The notes under the pieces: generated by a model
Seen by the model: only the letters and a program-made list of their open reading frames with translations
Database searches by the model: none
Told to the model about the DNA's origin: nothing
Position numbers and translations under genes: made by a program
From: a virus
IMG/VR virus record: IMGVR_UViG_3300010413_000039
Coordinates: 4,391 to 68,390 of that record
Direction: 5' to 3' (one strand)
DNA: 64,000 nucleotides
Part shown: piece by piece, positions 31,520 to 55,303 of the stretch
Layout: each line of letters opens with the position of its first letter
How positions within the stretch are numbered: position 1 is the first letter of the stretch

Positions 31520-32269
31520 TTACCATCCCAAGCAGGATAATAAATCTTTTGCCACATCACGAATAGTATTACCGTCTGTATCTGTTGGAACAAAGTCTGG
31601 AATCTTTGTAGATGAATAAGTGCCTGCCAACCATTCAAGTGTTTTTACAGACAGCATAGAATGCTCTGCAACCAAGCTAGAAAGACTTTGACCAGCAAGT
31701 GGGTGTGGTTCTGGAACAAATAAGACAGTCGCATCTTTCAAAAGATTAGAAAATTGATCAAACTGTTTCGGGTCTGTTGGGATATCAAGAGTATATTCAG
31801 CAGACGGTAGGAGTTCTTTAGGAAGAGTAAGTGGTTCGATTGGGGGTGATCCGTATTCCTGTTTTACAGAAACCCACCTTGGCTCATAGCTGTATAGGTA
31901 TCTACCTATTCCCCACTGTACACCTGCTCTTTTCATGGCATTTGAAATACCGCCTTTTACTGGTTCAAAGTTTGTGGGTTCAGCACCATCCCATTTAGTA
32001 ATCCACTCATCACCAATCCTGATAGAAATACCACACATGATACCATTGTTAACTGGCGAGATACTAAATTCGTTCTTCCAGTTTTCAGCACCACACACCT
32101 CATCGAGTCTTTCCATGATTGCTCTGTTATCCACATAAGGTACATACAGAACCATTGTAGGAAACTTAGCATTAGAATCTTTTCTCTGCAGGGATTTCAG
32201 ATTAGTTGATGTTGCTAACCAACCAATATCTTCAAGTGGAAACGGTCTTTTTAATTGTTCTAAGTTCAT
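31520..32269 (-). CDS. Rad52/Sak-family single-strand annealing protein
   Basis: YVDNRAIMERLDEVCG.ENW and KGGISNAMKRAGVQWGIGRYLY. Confidence 0.9.
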   Translation of the reverse strand: MNLEQLKRPFPLEDIGWLATSTNLKSLQRKDSNAKFPTMVLYVPYVDNRAIMERLDEVCGAENWKNEFSISPVNNGIMCGISIRIGDEWITKWDGAEPTNFEPVKGGISNAMKRAGVQWGIGRYLYSYEPRWVSVKQEYGSPPIEPLTLPKELLPSAEYTLDIPTDPKQFDQFSNLLKDATVLFVPEPHPLAGQSLSSLVAEHSMLSVKTLEWLAGTYSSTKIPDFVPTDTDGNTIRDVAKDLLSCLGW

Positions 32270-49436: not shown

Positions 49437-49685
49437 TTAGCGCATCAACTCAAACTGAACAGTGATATTTCCACGAGTATCAAGATAAATTCCACTGAGC
49501 TTGCCGGTCATTCGCTCACCAGCTACATCAAATGCATACGGACAGTCGCTGGCATATACCTTAAGGTTAAGGTAGCGGTTCTCTTCTGGTGCTGGTTCAT
49601 TGACCTCAGTAGTATTAATCGCCAGAATGCTTTCCTTCCCTTTCTTCTCACTGTCAAATAAGACTTCCTCGATTATCAGTTTCAT
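49437..49685 (-). CDS. hypothetical protein
   Basis: GGAGG SD, own promoter. Confidence 0.6.
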   Translation of the reverse strand: MKLIIEEVLFDSEKKGKESILAINTTEVNEPAPEENRYLNLKVYASDCPYAFDVAGERMTGKLSGIYLDTRGNITVQFELMR

Positions 49686-50149
49686 CTGCGTGCCTCCATC
49701 TGTAAGATGTCTACATTATACTACGATCTGCAGGTTAAGCAAGAGTAAATTGATCACTCTCATGAAACATTAATGTTAGTACACATGTGTACTGGATAAA
49801 TTGGATCAGCTTTATCGGATATATCCAGTCCGAAAAAGCTAACAAAGTAGACCAGGATTGTCGCATTAGTATGTGGATAAATCGGATCGGAGTAGTCCGA
49901 ATTTATTCCAGGGGTGGATTATCATCTTCTTGGTCTCCTGGTCACACCACACAAGGGTCTGGTTATCATGCCACCTATACGGGCTGTTATGTGTGGTGGA
50001 GGACTACTGTCCCGTCCCCCACCATCTTTGGATTTCTCTCCGTTTACCTGATCCCGTTGCACTCTCCTTTTGTCTACTCCGTTCTTATGATACAATTATA
50101 CCAGATACCGGCAGACTGTCAAGGGTATCTGGTATGTTCTCATAAAACA

Positions 50150-50615: not shown

Positions 50616-50957
50616 TCATGATACCTTTGCCTCAAACTCCAAGATATTTCTGGTGTCATAGGTGTTTCCAGTTGAGTGTATATCACTCTCAAAAGCTATC
50701 TTGCCTTCACGATATCCCATGTGAATCTCAGTGATCCCGTCCAGATCAACGTTTCCAAAGATACCGTGTCTCATGATAACATTAAATGATGGTGGTTTGA
50801 TCTCACGATGACCATATACACTGTAGTTATCATAAGGATGCTGGCTGTGAAGAACATCTAAAGCCTCAGCCAGATTGTCAGCCTGAATCTCTTCAAGCGA
50901 AACATGGACTATCTCAACCCCATCTGTGAAAGCTACAGCTAAAATGTATGTGTTCAT
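50616..50957 (-). CDS. hypothetical protein
   Basis: AGGAGG SD, own promoter. Confidence 0.65.
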   Translation of the reverse strand: MNTYILAVAFTDGVEIVHVSLEEIQADNLAEALDVLHSQHPYDNYSVYGHREIKPPSFNVIMRHGIFGNVDLDGITEIHMGYREGKIAFESDIHSTGNTYDTRNILEFEAKVS

Positions 50958-51049
50958 ATGTGTGCCTCCTGTATCGTTATATGTGTATTATAACAGAAAA
51001 ACCCCTGATGTCAAGAGCTATCAGGGGTTTCTCATGTTGCTCTAATGTT

Positions 51050-51226
51050 AGCGGAGGCGGTCTAACACTAGACAATAGGGTCTTATGGTTTGCGTTCAGT
51101 CTCCCTAACTTACCATGAGCTAGATCATCAACAGCCTACATAAGACCCTGATCTGACGTGCGCCCACCAGCACACACTCTCCTATCGAGTGGATTTGTCG
51201 TCAACGTGCACCCTATTGGTCAGTCC
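51050..51226 (-). ncRNA. structured non-coding segment 3' of the tmRNA-shaped RNA
   Basis: 11-bp stem 51077-51087/51139-51149 plus short hairpins; no credible ORF. Confidence 0.45.
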
Positions 51227-51616
51227 TAGCACTGCAGGGACTCGAACCCTGTCAGTCAGTGTGCACTCCCACAACACAGGATACCAGCCTGTGTTCACAG
51301 AGATTTTATGAGCATTCAGGGGAATGTGAGAGTTTATCTCGTCAGGTTACAAACAAGGGTGTGGTATACTCCGAGTCTATCTGACATATAGGGTAGGATT
51401 TCACTAAAACAGGCTTACCACACTTCCCTGCAAATGTCCTCCAGCCTTCCATTCCCCTGATTGCCCATAATTCTAGTTCTAGGGTCTGACTCTCACACCT
51501 GTACATGGTGATCGGTAGTAGTGTACTTACAAGTTGGGTCATGCCAACCTAGGATTTACACTTTATCTGCACTCTTCCTATCTAATGCGAGTCACCTACT
51601 TGAGTCATTCAGTGCT
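51227..51616 (-). ncRNA. 390-nt tRNA-like-domain RNA with tmRNA-like architecture
   Basis: AGCACTG (51616-51610) pairs with CAGTGCT (51234-51228) plus discriminator A; T-arm CAGGG-TTCGAGT-CCCTG; long internal helices. Confidence 0.6.
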
Positions 51617-51806
51617 ATCTAGAAATCTCTATGCTGTCCTGCAGTACAGTATAGTGTGTTTGTGAGACAGGTTGTACTGACCTGTATGTATCTCAGAGGC
51701 GAGTCGGACATTTCATTCTAATTAGTCCTTGAATTTCTTATGTGGCATCCCGCTTTTACACCATCCCTGCTGACAGCAGGTAAACTTTTGAACCGCAAAC
51801 CTCGGC

Positions 51807-51927
51807 GGACGGTGGTGGGATTCAAACCCACAACCTCCCATCTTTCCCTAGTGTTGATCAGACACTTTCCGAGGATGATCAATCCTCTACAGGATCATGA
51901 GTGCTCTACCAGTTGAGCTACACCGCC
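51807..51927 (-). tRNA. atypical tRNA/tRNA-like RNA with a 55-nt two-hairpin insert replacing the anticodon loop
   Basis: Acceptor GGCGGTG/CACCGTC, D-arm GCTC-AACTGGTA-GAGC, anticodon stem CTCAT/ATGGG, variable loop AGGTT, T-arm GTGGG-TTTGAAT-CCCAC; no encoded CCA. Confidence 0.8.
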
Positions 51928-51982
51928 ATATTATTTGAGGTTCATTCCAGTGATCAAATCTGGATTGTAAGATTCATATTCA

Positions 51983-52515
51983 GTTGTTAAGGTTCGATGT
52001 TATAATTATACTACAATTTCTTTGTTTGTCAAGGGTATTTCGTGTTTCTAATCTTACATTAATATCGTGGGACTTTCACCCACATGGTGGGACTTTCCCA
52101 CCAGTATTATTCTTTACCTGTCCATTGGATTTAGTCCTCCAGTGAGACACATATTTTATCTGGATGGTCTCACGCTGTCCAGTGATTATCTTCTACACTC
52201 TTGGGGGCATTCTACGTCACAGCCATTGTAGACATCGGTCTTTGGCTATCGGCTGTCTGACCTGCCCCCAAGAGGGCAGAAAATCTCAGGCTATTGTGAT
52301 CTCTCGGACACTTATCACCTTACTTAGCTGGTCGGTCGTTTCCACTACCAGTACCTGAAATATTCTGTTGTTAAGGTTCTGACAGAACCCCTCCAGTCTT
52401 AGTGCCTAGTGTAGGTCTAGTGGGTCTTCGAGTCTCGCTCTACTTGCCTCACCGCTCACTACCTGTTATGGTAGGTGCACATTGGCTGGACTGCCTACTC
52501 AGAATGTTAAGGTTC
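51983..52515 (-). promoter_or_regulatory. three boxA-like antitermination elements GAACCTTAACA
   Basis: At 51983-51995, 52367-52379 and 52503-52515; two lie within ~15 nt downstream of a -10 box. Confidence 0.6.
52066..52502 (-). ncRNA. structured non-coding transcript(s)
   Basis: Own promoter and boxA; 12-bp stem 52198-52209/52263-52274; terminal twin GTGGG..CCCAC hairpins. Confidence 0.55.
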
Positions 52516-52589
52516 TGTCTTATGTCACTATTATAGCATGTTTCAGATATTTGTCAAGGGTTTTAAGGTGTTCTCATGAAACATTAATG

Positions 52590-52847
52590 TTAGGGTGTTA
52601 CCCCTATTACCCCTATTAAACACTGCTCACCACCTTGGCATGGAAAGCCAAACACAGGTTCATTGCCAACAACGTGGTTTCTGATGTCGTTTAAGTATAC
52701 CTTATAAGTACAGACTGTATCACCTATCTCACCACCAGTGCAGGTGTCGGTCAACGGATTCGACCCTGCATCCACAGGTTGTACAGCCACCAACAACATT
52801 ACCACACCTACCACCAGCACTACCAGAATAAGCACAACGGTTTTCAT
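52590..52847 (-). CDS. small secreted Cys-containing protein
   Basis: Signal peptide ending VDA; 4 Cys. Confidence 0.6.
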   Translation of the reverse strand: MKTVVLILVVLVVGVVMLLVAVQPVDAGSNPLTDTCTGGEIGDTVCTYKVYLNDIRNHVVGNEPVFGFPCQGGEQCLIGVIGVTP

Positions 52848-53560: not shown

Positions 53561-53650
53561 TCGTTTGTGCCTCCGTTTCTAAGATGTCCTCATTATATCA
53601 GGTTATAGTATCCTGTCAATAGTATTTTAGGTATTCTCATAATTCTTTAA

Positions 53651-54090: not shown

Positions 54091-54659
54091 TTTCGCCTCC
54101 GTGTTCCTGTTATGTCTACATTATAACACATTATAGAATGTTGTCAAGTGTTTTAAGCCTCTCTAATCAAACATTAATCTTTCAGTACACATGTATACTT
54201 GACAAATCAGACCAGCTTTATCCGATAAAGATTGTCCACAAATAGGATCGAAATAGTCCAGGATTGTGCCGGCGTGCATGTGGACAAACTGGATAGGATT
54301 AGTCCGAATAGTTTGCAGGGGTGGATTACCTTCCTTGCATTGCCTGTGGTCGATTTGCCTGGGATGCTGGTTTCTTCTTCACCAGTCTGGAAGTGTGTCT
54401 GTCTTATGATCTAAGTATACCAGAAAATCCCCTCTTGTCAAGGGGATTCTGGCTTTCTCATGAAACATTAATCTATGCGAGTCTCGTGCCTCGGATGTAT
54501 AGAGGAAAGGATTCTTCATCATCTTCAAGAATCACCTCGCCTGAGAAATCATAATCATCAGAGAAATCATCCTCTAGGCACTGGTCACACAGCCCATCAT
54601 CTTCCTCGTTTATTAATGTTCCACATCCCACGCAAAGATATCTTTCCATATTAGACTCC

Positions 54660-55088: not shown

Positions 55089-55303
55089 GTTTCGCCTCCG
55101 TGTTTATGATGATTACATTATACCAGAAAATGCTAGCCTGTCAAGCGATTTAAGACATTCTAATAAATCTCTAATGTGACAAATCGGACTAGCTTTATCG
55201 GATAATTTCACTCCGAATAAGCTGATAAAGTTGACCAGGATTGTCCTATTTCCTGGTAAAAAATAAGGCTTGCCTCCCTGACAAGCCTCATTATATTGCA
55301 GGT

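Follow-up and report, generated by a model that had tools for sequence, protein, structure and literature searches.

Large, ornate RNAs of unknown function lie beside tRNA genes in phages, and two groups of them, GOLLD and ROOL, have their own Rfam families. The cloverleaf has also been engineered as a scaffold, and in E. coli a cargo RNA placed in its anticodon arm is reportedly handled as a stable tRNA. Among natural loci, the tRNA region of phage T4 encodes two small stable RNAs of unknown role, RNAC and RNAD, that are co-transcribed with tRNAs (PMC3014915), and Lak megaphages are reported to carry "enigmatic introns" in tRNAs as well as highly expressed intergenic regions (10.1101/356790). 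In bacteria, boxA elements bound by the Nus complex are found upstream of 16S rRNA and of CRISPR arrays (PMC7862264). Here, we analyzed 64 kb of viral DNA (hereafter the window, in whose coordinates all positions are given; positions 4391-68390 of the 68.4-kb IMG/VR record IMGVR_UViG_3300010413_000039, estimated to be 77% complete) and describe an untranslated block of about 1.5 kb on its minus strand (51000-52560). The explanation that we consider probable, if not firmly so, is that this block is an early, boxA-led untranslated operon of folded RNAs, which would be cut into stable RNAs with the help of tRNA-type handles.

Compared with these systems, the block shares some features and departs in others. 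As in rRNA operons and CRISPR leaders, the boxA-type core occurs soon after a promoter and again between the RNAs of an untranslated operon; unlike there, the block is phage-borne, its RNAs have no assigned role, the conserved unit is 20 nt and thus longer than a classical boxA, and the first copy is truncated and predicted to be base-paired. No sequence relation to RNAC or RNAD of T4 is seen, and the block, at about 1.5 kb, lies apart from the seven canonical tRNAs of its phage. The Lak tRNAs similarly contain extra sequence in the anticodon region without a known splicing route, but Lak phages are of another lineage and host, and the loop of the enlarged tRNA of our block (tRNAx) is not restored by any excision. 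The RNAs are large, ornate, phage-borne and near tRNA genes, as are GOLLD and ROOL; identity with either was rejected, as the Rfam models of both failed to match at E ≤10 as well as at the gathering threshold, and no sequence is shared. One domain, here called big, resembles transfer-messenger RNA (tmRNA) in having an acceptor-like helix and a T-arm around a few hundred nucleotides, and true tmRNAs of related phages sit in comparable units, whereas the defining features of tmRNA (a model match, a G3-U70 pair, a GGGG-type 5' end) are lacking in big. By analogy, tRNAx and its block would be a natural counterpart of the man-made tRNA scaffold if they are processed alike. While boxA-led untranslated operons, the T4 small RNAs and the Lak tRNA inserts are already known in bacteria or phages, we found no description of phage operons that are led by boxA and encode large tRNA-scaffolded RNAs in the literature covered, which left out most subscription journals.

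In the proposed arrangement, two tandem promoters would drive transcription through five or six folded domains (R1, R2, tRNAx, mid, big, and tail) to a single intrinsic terminator. Two full 20-nt boxA-type elements, one at the start of the transcript from the second promoter and the other between R1 and R2, probably recruit host Nus antitermination, and the Nus complex would then spare RNA polymerase from Rho on a long ribosome-free transcript; the use of boxA in bacterial rRNA operons and CRISPR leaders serves as the model. The precursor is probably cut into stable RNAs, with tRNAx, and possibly the acceptor-like helix and T-arm of big, as handles for tRNA-processing enzymes that would give stable ends to non-tRNA cargo. 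Members of the lineage carry large tRNA arrays and tmRNA genes, and the block probably evolved from an array of this kind. Most likely it serves, much as an rRNA operon does, to produce untranslated, folded RNA in quantity early in infection. The tRNA arrays of phages tend to be interpreted as a kit for codon supply or anti-defence, with little attention to the long non-coding stretches adjoining them; in this lineage, the bacterial recipe for untranslated RNA (strong promoters, boxA, tRNA-like modules, terminator) would have been copied for RNAs that belong to no known family.

Promoters and a boxA-type motif in an untranslated block

The minus strand of the block is without a credible open reading frame (ORF), as the original prediction, made by eye from the sequence, had claimed for about 1.5 kb: the longest minus-strand ORF in 51035-52590 encodes 66 amino acids (51342-51542), and each minus frame of the block has 35-39 stops per 518 codons. 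Both minus-strand promoters that it had named, P1 (52530-52557) and P2 (52005-52032), are TTGACA-N16-TATAAT with 12/12 hexamer positions matched, and P1 also has a TG before the -10 hexamer. Their description as rRNA-style did not survive comparison with the rest of the window, where a perfect TTGACA-N16/17-TATAAT occurs nine times against 0.19 expected. Eight of the nine lie on the minus strand between 50095 and 61135, and four of the other minus-strand promoters are followed within about 35 nt by GGAGG, ACGGAGGC or a similar word and then by ATG. Because the same consensus recurs ahead of Shine-Dalgarno words and start codons, P1 and P2 are, judged by sequence, ordinary early promoters of this phage and not rRNA-specific. 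The block is predicted to end in an intrinsic terminator (51000-51033, minus strand) with a 14-bp stem and a U-run in the fold, the loop and 3' half of which extend into the -35 hexamer of the promoter that follows (50987-51014). Both the hexamers and 16-18 nt spacing expected of sigma-70 promoters and the elements expected of an intrinsic terminator are thus seen in the block.

What sets P1 and P2 apart in the window is the word that follows them. The 11-mer GAACCTTAACA occurs exactly at 52505-52515, 52369-52379, and 51985-51995 and nowhere else in the 64 kb; with up to one mismatch it has seven matches against 1.49 expected, a number reached in 0/100 shuffles of the window. It follows only the two promoters that lack a Shine-Dalgarno word and ATG, with gaps from the -10 hexamer of 14 nt (P1) and 9 nt (P2), in agreement with the distance of within about 15 nt given originally; a third copy, put at 52367-52379, does exist but spans 52369-52379. 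Copies 2 (GAACCTTAACAACAGAATAT, 52360-52379, minus strand) and 3 (GAACCTTAACAACTGAATAT, 51976-51995, minus strand) have in common a 20-nt unit, GAACCTTAACAAC[A/T]GAATAT. Copy 3 starts 9 nt after the -10 hexamer of P2, and copy 2 has no promoter in front and lies between R1 and R2. Copy 1 (52505-52515, minus strand) consists of the 11-nt core only and lies in the 5' strand of the R1-closing helix, where it is paired with GGGGUUCUGUC at 52381-52391 in both the minimum free energy and centroid folds. In a variant strain, G52391 and G52390 are replaced by A, which turns two G-U pairs of this helix into A-U pairs, and copy 1 perhaps serves as a structural element, such as a processing stem.

The E. 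coli rrn boxA-spacer is given as ugcucuuuaacaauuua (PMC2724277), to be set against GAACCUUAACAACUGAAU in the block. Over the core, the block (CCUUAACAA) and E. coli rrn (CUUUAACAA, from the same source) are identical at 8/9 positions, and the copy of a related phage (G015, GCACTTTAACAA) is identical at 9/9. The element therefore has a consensus-like sequence and, as expected of boxA, is located in leaders and spacers of a putative untranslated operon. Taken together with its contexts elsewhere (below), there is strong support for the repeated motif being a boxA-type element. The original identification as boxA consequently stands for copies 2 and 3, whose 20-mer is found in rRNA, CRISPR, and tRNA contexts elsewhere, and less well for copy 1, a base-paired 11-nt core.

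To place the motif in related phages, a lineage was assembled from the major capsid protein, which has many uncultivated relatives (181 proteins at E ≤0.001), with 56-93% identity among the 120 of 181 matches listed; some carry the SU10-type capsid family PF17236. Alignment of 31 capsid proteins led to 49 IMG/VR loci, and 31 of those records were searched whole, so that lineage counts cover 32 records including the phage studied here (G000). Matches to tRNA were detected in 16/32 records (up to 39 per record), and full-length tmRNA was found in 7/32 (six above the cut-off). These tmRNAs (L065-L071, in G015, G005, G008, G004, G021, G019, and G022) are canonical and 280-329 nt long; their predicted tags are unusually long, and their genes adjoin tRNA arrays and lie behind a boxA-like motif.

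Five sites in related phages that differ from GAACCTTAACAA at two positions or fewer follow a promoter-like site (≤1 mismatch). Motif variants stand just after promoters of stable-RNA units in G004, G015 (GCACTTTAACAACTGAAA), G019, G022, and G013, with the units of G022 and G019 among the examples ahead of tRNA-Tyr and tmRNA, and also directly before the tmRNAs of G021 and G004. A looser motif, defined after these sites had been seen, occurs within 50 nt of 7/104 promoter-like sites in 19 sequences, against 0.33 expected; 0/7 of these promoters are followed by a Shine-Dalgarno word and start, and 6/7 lie no more than 720 nt from a tRNA, tmRNA or insert-bearing tRNA. In G004 (1 kb), G015 (0.7 kb), and G013 (0.65 kb), the motif-led units open with a folded stretch that is poor in ORFs, richer in G+C, and includes T-arm-like pieces. 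These three leader blocks have no detectable sequence in common with the block studied here or with each other, the exception among leader blocks being a match of G013 to G011 (E 6.6e-18). Likewise, BLAST of the block against the 31 related records gave matches in six, each of ≤33 nt and at promoter, D-arm or T-arm positions, and nhmmer against 18 loci of relatives and 69 metagenome loci with the motif gave nothing below E 0.07. The architecture of the unit recurs in the lineage, but its RNA bodies turn over fast.

Beyond the lineage, the exact 20-mer GAACCTTAACAACWGAATAT was found at 69 metagenome loci, 59 of them distinct by their downstream flank, and the flanks are unrelated on both sides. 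In three of the 69, the 20-mer lies 26-45 nt before an Rfam-confirmed bacterial 23S rRNA; four (two distinct) have it before CRISPR-like arrays and three (two distinct) inside tRNA arrays, 12 or 13 belong to one unnamed conserved family, and about 46 have no assigned context. One Chloroflexota genome has the 20-mer with one mismatch in the order 16S, tRNA, tRNA, motif, 23S. In two more genomes of this phylum (L190, L191) it precedes CRISPR repeats by about 110 nt, and in the fourth of four it belongs to the unnamed family. The element can provide a search handle for rRNA spacers, CRISPR leaders, phage RNA arrays, and the unnamed RNA family in metagenomes. Within IMG/VR, two motif copies 110-140 nt apart were found at six loci, each of which turned out to be an unrelated tandem repeat or a CRISPR array, and the promoter plus motif pattern at five loci (three distinct), unrelated to the block and in two cases ahead of an ORF.

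Several of these loci are of interest in their own right. The CRISPR-linked 20-mers (L190 and L191, and metagenome loci L148/L153/L176 and L188) all lie about 110 nt upstream of the repeats, are preceded by a conserved leader, ttgcgaacc...ggttcgcagg, and by their sequence are natural boxA elements in CRISPR leaders outside Proteobacteria. Behind the 20-mer of the unnamed family stands a conserved non-coding sequence of the form ...gccagagctg...gcaaataaaatgccctagcc..., seen in metagenome loci L122, L123, L137, L139, L140, L145, L146, L152, L162, L171, and L182 and at L192, in a 1.5-Mb Chloroflexota genome. The 12 members scanned have no Rfam match at the gathering threshold, and the family could be an undescribed RNA of small-genome Chloroflexota. 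In an IMG/VR viral contig, a CRISPR-like array (L005:7276-7658) has a repeat that contains GAACCTTAACA.

Folded domains, strain variation and environmental RNA

Rfam was searched at the gathering threshold over the 64 kb and at E ≤10 over a 1.8-kb region around the block. At the gathering threshold, tRNA at 51807-51927 alone passes; tmRNA, GOLLD, ROOL, group I intron, and RNase P RNA have no match at E ≤10 over the 1.8 kb, so that membership by model match in RNase P RNA, 6S RNA, Y RNA, group I intron, GOLLD or ROOL was not found, and the other 10 matches at E ≤10 are weak and to unrelated families. Together with ARAGORN, these searches identify no known family beyond the one tRNA match; the original reading by eye had assigned the block to none.

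That match is tRNAx (51807-51927, minus strand), which scores 45.6 bits against Rfam tRNA (RF00005, cut-off 29) over model positions 1-71 and has acceptor, D, and T arms. The original prediction of an RNA with a tRNA acceptor stem, a T-arm, and a 55-nt insert is thus confirmed, with a D-arm in addition. The insert (51842-51896) stands in place of the 7-nt anticodon loop; in the predicted minimum free energy fold the cloverleaf is kept, and the insert becomes a three-way junction with two hairpin loops that both contain UGAUCA. ARAGORN made no call in the window by default, and once introns were allowed and the score was relaxed, it reported "Phe-GAA" with a 48-nt insert and the loop GGGAAAG, which lacks U33. 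A 7-nt anticodon loop that contains U33 and an anticodon that can be read is accordingly not present, the T-loop is UUUGAAU with U instead of C at position 56, and CCA is not encoded (3' side C-GCC). In intron mode, ARAGORN made 32 calls in 19 sequences, 28 of which overlap canonical tRNAs and are artefacts that join neighbouring genes, while the other four, in the window, G015, G022, and G027 (4/32 records), are genuine cloverleaves with an enlarged anticodon arm. The Rfam tRNA scores of such relatives are 53.9 bits (G022) and 45.1 bits (G027), and in G022 and G015 the extra sequence is predicted just to lengthen the anticodon helix. A split-tRNA pattern had 0 matches in IMG/VR. The recurrence of these cloverleaves bears on the nature of the "introns" of phage tRNAs. 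In an unrelated metagenome contig, an Rfam tRNA match of 105 nt (L138:4292-4396, 39.4 bits), over the normal tRNA length and with the 20-mer immediately after it, may be another insert-bearing tRNA.

The second proposed scaffold, big (51227-51616, minus strand, 390 nt), has a 7-bp terminal helix in which AGCACUG (51610-51616) is 7/7 complementary to CAGUGCU (51228-51234), with 358 nt between the strands and not about 330 nt as first estimated. Adjoining CAGUGCU is a T-arm sequence, CAGGG-UUCGAGU-CCCUG (51235-51251), one of only two T-arm sequences in the 1.5-kb block; it is identical over 14 nt to the T-arm of tRNA-Trp of the same phage and so probably originated in a tRNA gene. If this tRNA-Trp match is set aside, exact complementarity between the block and other parts of the genome reaches 13-14 nt at most, about as long as expected by chance. 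The terminal helix is well predicted when big is folded alone (pair probability 0.87-1.0 for 6/7 pairs). The claim of a second tRNA scaffold was thus right in the terminal helix and the T-arm sequence, but the D-arm is absent and the T-arm competes with another helix. The next-best Rfam match is mascRNA-like (22 bits, E 0.16) and covers the T-arm and 3' strand (51228-51278), and a 30-mer of the T-arm was found in 0 metagenome contigs.

The remaining domains on the minus strand differ in how strongly they fold, as measured by z-scores computed against dinucleotide shuffles. R2 (52040-52359) is a strongly folded domain of about 300 nt with a helix of about 25 bp (z-score -6.16, 0/100 shuffles as stable), R1 (52381-52519) is a domain of about 139 nt closed by an 11-bp helix (-2.76), big reaches -2.96, and tail (51035-51226), with three helical elements, reaches -1.66. 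The last hairpin of tail has a loop (51052-51059, CGCCUCCG) that is perfectly complementary to the Shine-Dalgarno word CGGAGGCG, which precedes early genes at 54094-54101 and 55093-55100 exactly and at 53568-53575 with 7/8 positions. We estimate the chance of such an 8-mer complement in 1.5 kb at about 0.05, only marginally unlikely, and the loop could be an anti-Shine-Dalgarno regulator or a coincidence.

Differences between strains were taken from DNA contigs of two runs (X11, X12) and RNA contigs of two more (X15, X18), with 40 of 50 differing sites listed, and were placed on folds predicted from the reference alone; 35 of the 40 fall inside the two transcripts. Two double changes are compensatory at predicted partners in big, in each case in the same runs: U51546-A51535 becomes G-C, and G51454-C51322, 132 nt apart, becomes A-U. 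A further 12 single changes at paired sites, all transitions, keep the pair through G-U on the minus strand, including those at 52244 and 52190 in R2 and 51068 G to A in tail (G-U to A-U); read on the plus strand, every one of them would leave one allele with an A-C mismatch. The pair G52190-U52282 in the long R2 helix exemplifies the G-U pair, A-C on the plus strand, that had been noticed from the reference. Four changes break pairs (three transversions, one transition) and 15 are at unpaired sites. By a rough estimate, about half of paired-site transitions would keep the pair by chance, and 12/13 is therefore unlikely. Strain variation thus supports RNA structure on the minus strand, with few events and a fold taken from the reference. 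Whole modules also vary between strains: a junction at 51467-51469 gains 23 nt, 51970-51976 give way to 227 nt, and the variant strain lacks the 49 nt (52064-52112) that carry the two tandem hairpins of R2.

The 20 of 22 listed sequencing runs that contain part of the block stem from eight metagenome studies (marine sediment, soil, sediment, and aquaculture), and in 10 runs half or more of the sampled words are present. The runs with the block include 14 DNA runs. RNA contigs came from two different metatranscriptome studies: X15 covers 51470-51759 (294 nt, depth 38) and X18 covers 51567-51755 (188 nt), and a further X15 contig covers 51052-51293 at depth 3. The flanking coding regions (50900-51021, 52547-52700) are covered by the DNA runs and by neither RNA run, which argues that the contigs derive from RNA and not from contaminating DNA. 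The longer X15 contig ends at 51470, which coincides with the strain-variable insertion site. At the opposite side, the X15 and X18 contigs terminate at 51755-51759 without a loose end, which hints weakly at a 5' end near 51757, upstream of which no promoter was convincing by eye. This is within mid (51617-51806, minus strand), where the RNA contigs begin and where 51673-51803 has no listed strain differences. With dense stops, structure-preserving variation and environmental RNA, the central claim of the original prediction, an untranslated structured RNA unit on the minus strand of the early region, is upheld.

Competing explanations

A number of observations weigh against the operon that we propose. 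Predicted pairing of copy 1 would make it ill suited to binding NusB/NusE, and the T-arm of big has a pair probability of only 0.05, with a cost of 2.7 kcal/mol for forcing the tRNA-like form, because GACUCG near the 5' end is an alternative partner for its 3' half. Fold energy is unremarkable (z-score -0.35) for mid, the part with the best coverage and the least variation. The plus strand folds about as well as the minus strand, and R2 folds as well on the plus strand (-112.9 versus -110.3 kcal/mol), so that fold energy alone gives no strand, and the folds, being predicted from the reference, favour reference pairs. No homologues of the RNA bodies were found beyond strain-level variants, which leaves covariation on few events. 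The RNA support consists of contigs, which carry no strand, true ends or levels; they cross the proposed 5' end of big at 51616, which would fit a precursor or a different unit boundary, and neither X15 nor X18 provides an RNA contig for 51815-52546 (R1, R2, tRNAx) or 51294-51469, yet this is no evidence of absence. No RNA ligase, RtcB, Ro/Rsr or CCA-adding enzyme was found among the 84 ORFs of the window that were scanned, and hence no phage-encoded partner hints at a mechanism. Overall, the block is real, well marked, and experimentally tractable, and comparative support for the detailed folds is thin.

These points leave room for simpler readings. One is that tRNAx is an ordinary tRNA gene with a small intron excised by an unknown route and the rest of the block is spacer, akin to the "enigmatic introns" of Lak phages, whose conserved tRNA introns are reported to have no known splicing mechanism (10.1101/356790). 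ARAGORN does restore a 7-nt loop in this way in G027 (Pro-UGG, 56-nt insert) and G022 (Cys-GCA, 46-nt insert), and tRNAx is preceded by UAU like several of the seven canonical tRNAs of the phage. For tRNAx itself, however, no excision restores a normal loop, the best solution being G-G-GAA-A-G without U33; there is no group I intron match at E ≤10, and an insert of 55 nt is far below group I intron size. A splicing endonuclease or RNA ligase was also not found among the 84 ORFs, and the extra sequence in G022 and G015 merely lengthens the anticodon helix. R1, R2, big, and tail and their structure-preserving changes would also be left unexplained, and we consider an intron unlikely. Another is that the block is the remnant of a decaying tRNA or tmRNA array, still transcribed and functionless, which would suit a lineage with up to 39 tRNA matches and tmRNA, the 14 nt that big shares with tRNA-Trp, the gain and loss of modules between strains (+23 nt, 227 nt, -49 nt), and the lack of homologues beyond the species. 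Decay would hardly produce two compensatory double changes, one across 132 nt, or keep the pair in 12/13 paired-site transitions, nor would it be expected to retain two perfect promoters and two full boxA-type elements or to yield an RNA contig of depth 38. In addition, helices of 20-25 bp are not tRNA-like, and just two T-arm sequences in 1.5 kb form no ladder of degenerate cloverleaves; we rate this reading as improbable, a little more so than the intron.

Two further possibilities fare considerably worse. That the block codes for small proteins, or for a protein under another genetic code, is suggested by ORFs of 30 (51619-51711) and 66 (51342-51542) amino acids and by AAGGA upstream of ATGs at about 51711-51716, but each of the three minus frames is dense with stops, the phage otherwise reads open under table 11, and stop reassignment opens long frames on the plus strand only. 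Moreover, the lone strain difference in the 30-amino-acid ORF (51672) is non-synonymous, yet keeps an RNA pair, and coding is therefore very improbable. The idea that big is a very divergent phage tmRNA appeals to the same design (a terminal acceptor-like helix and a T-arm with about 360 nt between) and to the canonical tmRNAs (280-329 nt) near tRNAs and behind the same motif in 7/32 related records. It has been largely refuted: RF00023 gives no match at E ≤10 in the 1.8-kb region or at E ≤1 in G000, and ARAGORN finds none, while the same searches do find tmRNA in those seven records. Pair 3:70 is C-G and not the G-U of alanine identity, the 5' end is AGCACUG where all seven lineage tmRNAs start with GGGGAUG or GGGCCUG, an GGCUUCGAC-type element is absent, and neither CCA nor ACC is encoded.

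The preferred reading, an early boxA-led operon of folded RNAs, can be taken a step further. We speculate, with considerable doubt, that the lineage turned its stable-RNA operons into a delivery platform for lineage-specific effector RNAs early in infection, the RNAs possibly acting as decoys, regulators or scaffolds. Host boxA/Nus and tRNA-type handles would then mass-produce effector RNAs; the three-way-junction arm of tRNAx might be a decoy for tRNA-targeting defences or might allow loop-loop assembly via its two UGAUCA loops, and the loop of the terminal hairpin (CGCCUCCG) might pair with Shine-Dalgarno regions of early mRNAs and shut them off. If so, the fast-evolving structured leaders of 0.2-1 kb behind the motif in G004, G015, G013, and G011 would belong to the same new class, that of tRNA-scaffolded phage RNAs.

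Source phage, possible hosts and other features of the window

GenBank phages had no nucleotide match to the window by blastn or megablast, and none of them exceeds 33% identity to its family-A DNA polymerase. Used as single queries against IMG/VR, this polymerase and a 138-amino-acid protein neighbouring the block gave no matches, and a neighbouring protein of 203 amino acids retrieved its own cluster only from 5.8 billion proteins. No tmRNA was found in G000 at E ≤1. Its seven canonical tRNAs (Trp, Glu, Arg, Phe, Asp, Asn, and Ile; plus strand, C1:204-3521) lie just outside the window, upstream of the portal gene, and none encodes CCA.

Capsid relatives were found in contigs of metagenome-assembled genomes (MAGs) labelled Anaerolineales, Chloroflexia, and Prolixibacteraceae, and the 20-mer within two mismatches was present in 0 of these three MAGs. 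Within one mismatch, it occurs in 4/301 genomes of the phylum of the Chloroflexia MAG (reversed control pattern 0) and in 0/301 genomes of the phylum of the Prolixibacteraceae MAG. The distribution of the 20-mer is no more than suggestive of a Chloroflexota host, and the element may more generally help to link phages to hosts.

Other observations in the window include another perfect promoter (50095-50122) within 49686-50149 on the minus strand. Some 400 nt in which no ORF is obvious separate it from the gene at 49437-49685, and they may represent a small gene or another short non-coding stretch. Pfam matches among the 84 ORFs include Rad52/22 (31520-32269), three DNA methyltransferase families, GH25 lysozyme, and YunG. 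One further ORF matches ribosome modulation factor (RMF, E 1.4e-7), and a phage-borne RMF-like protein would add another link to host translation.

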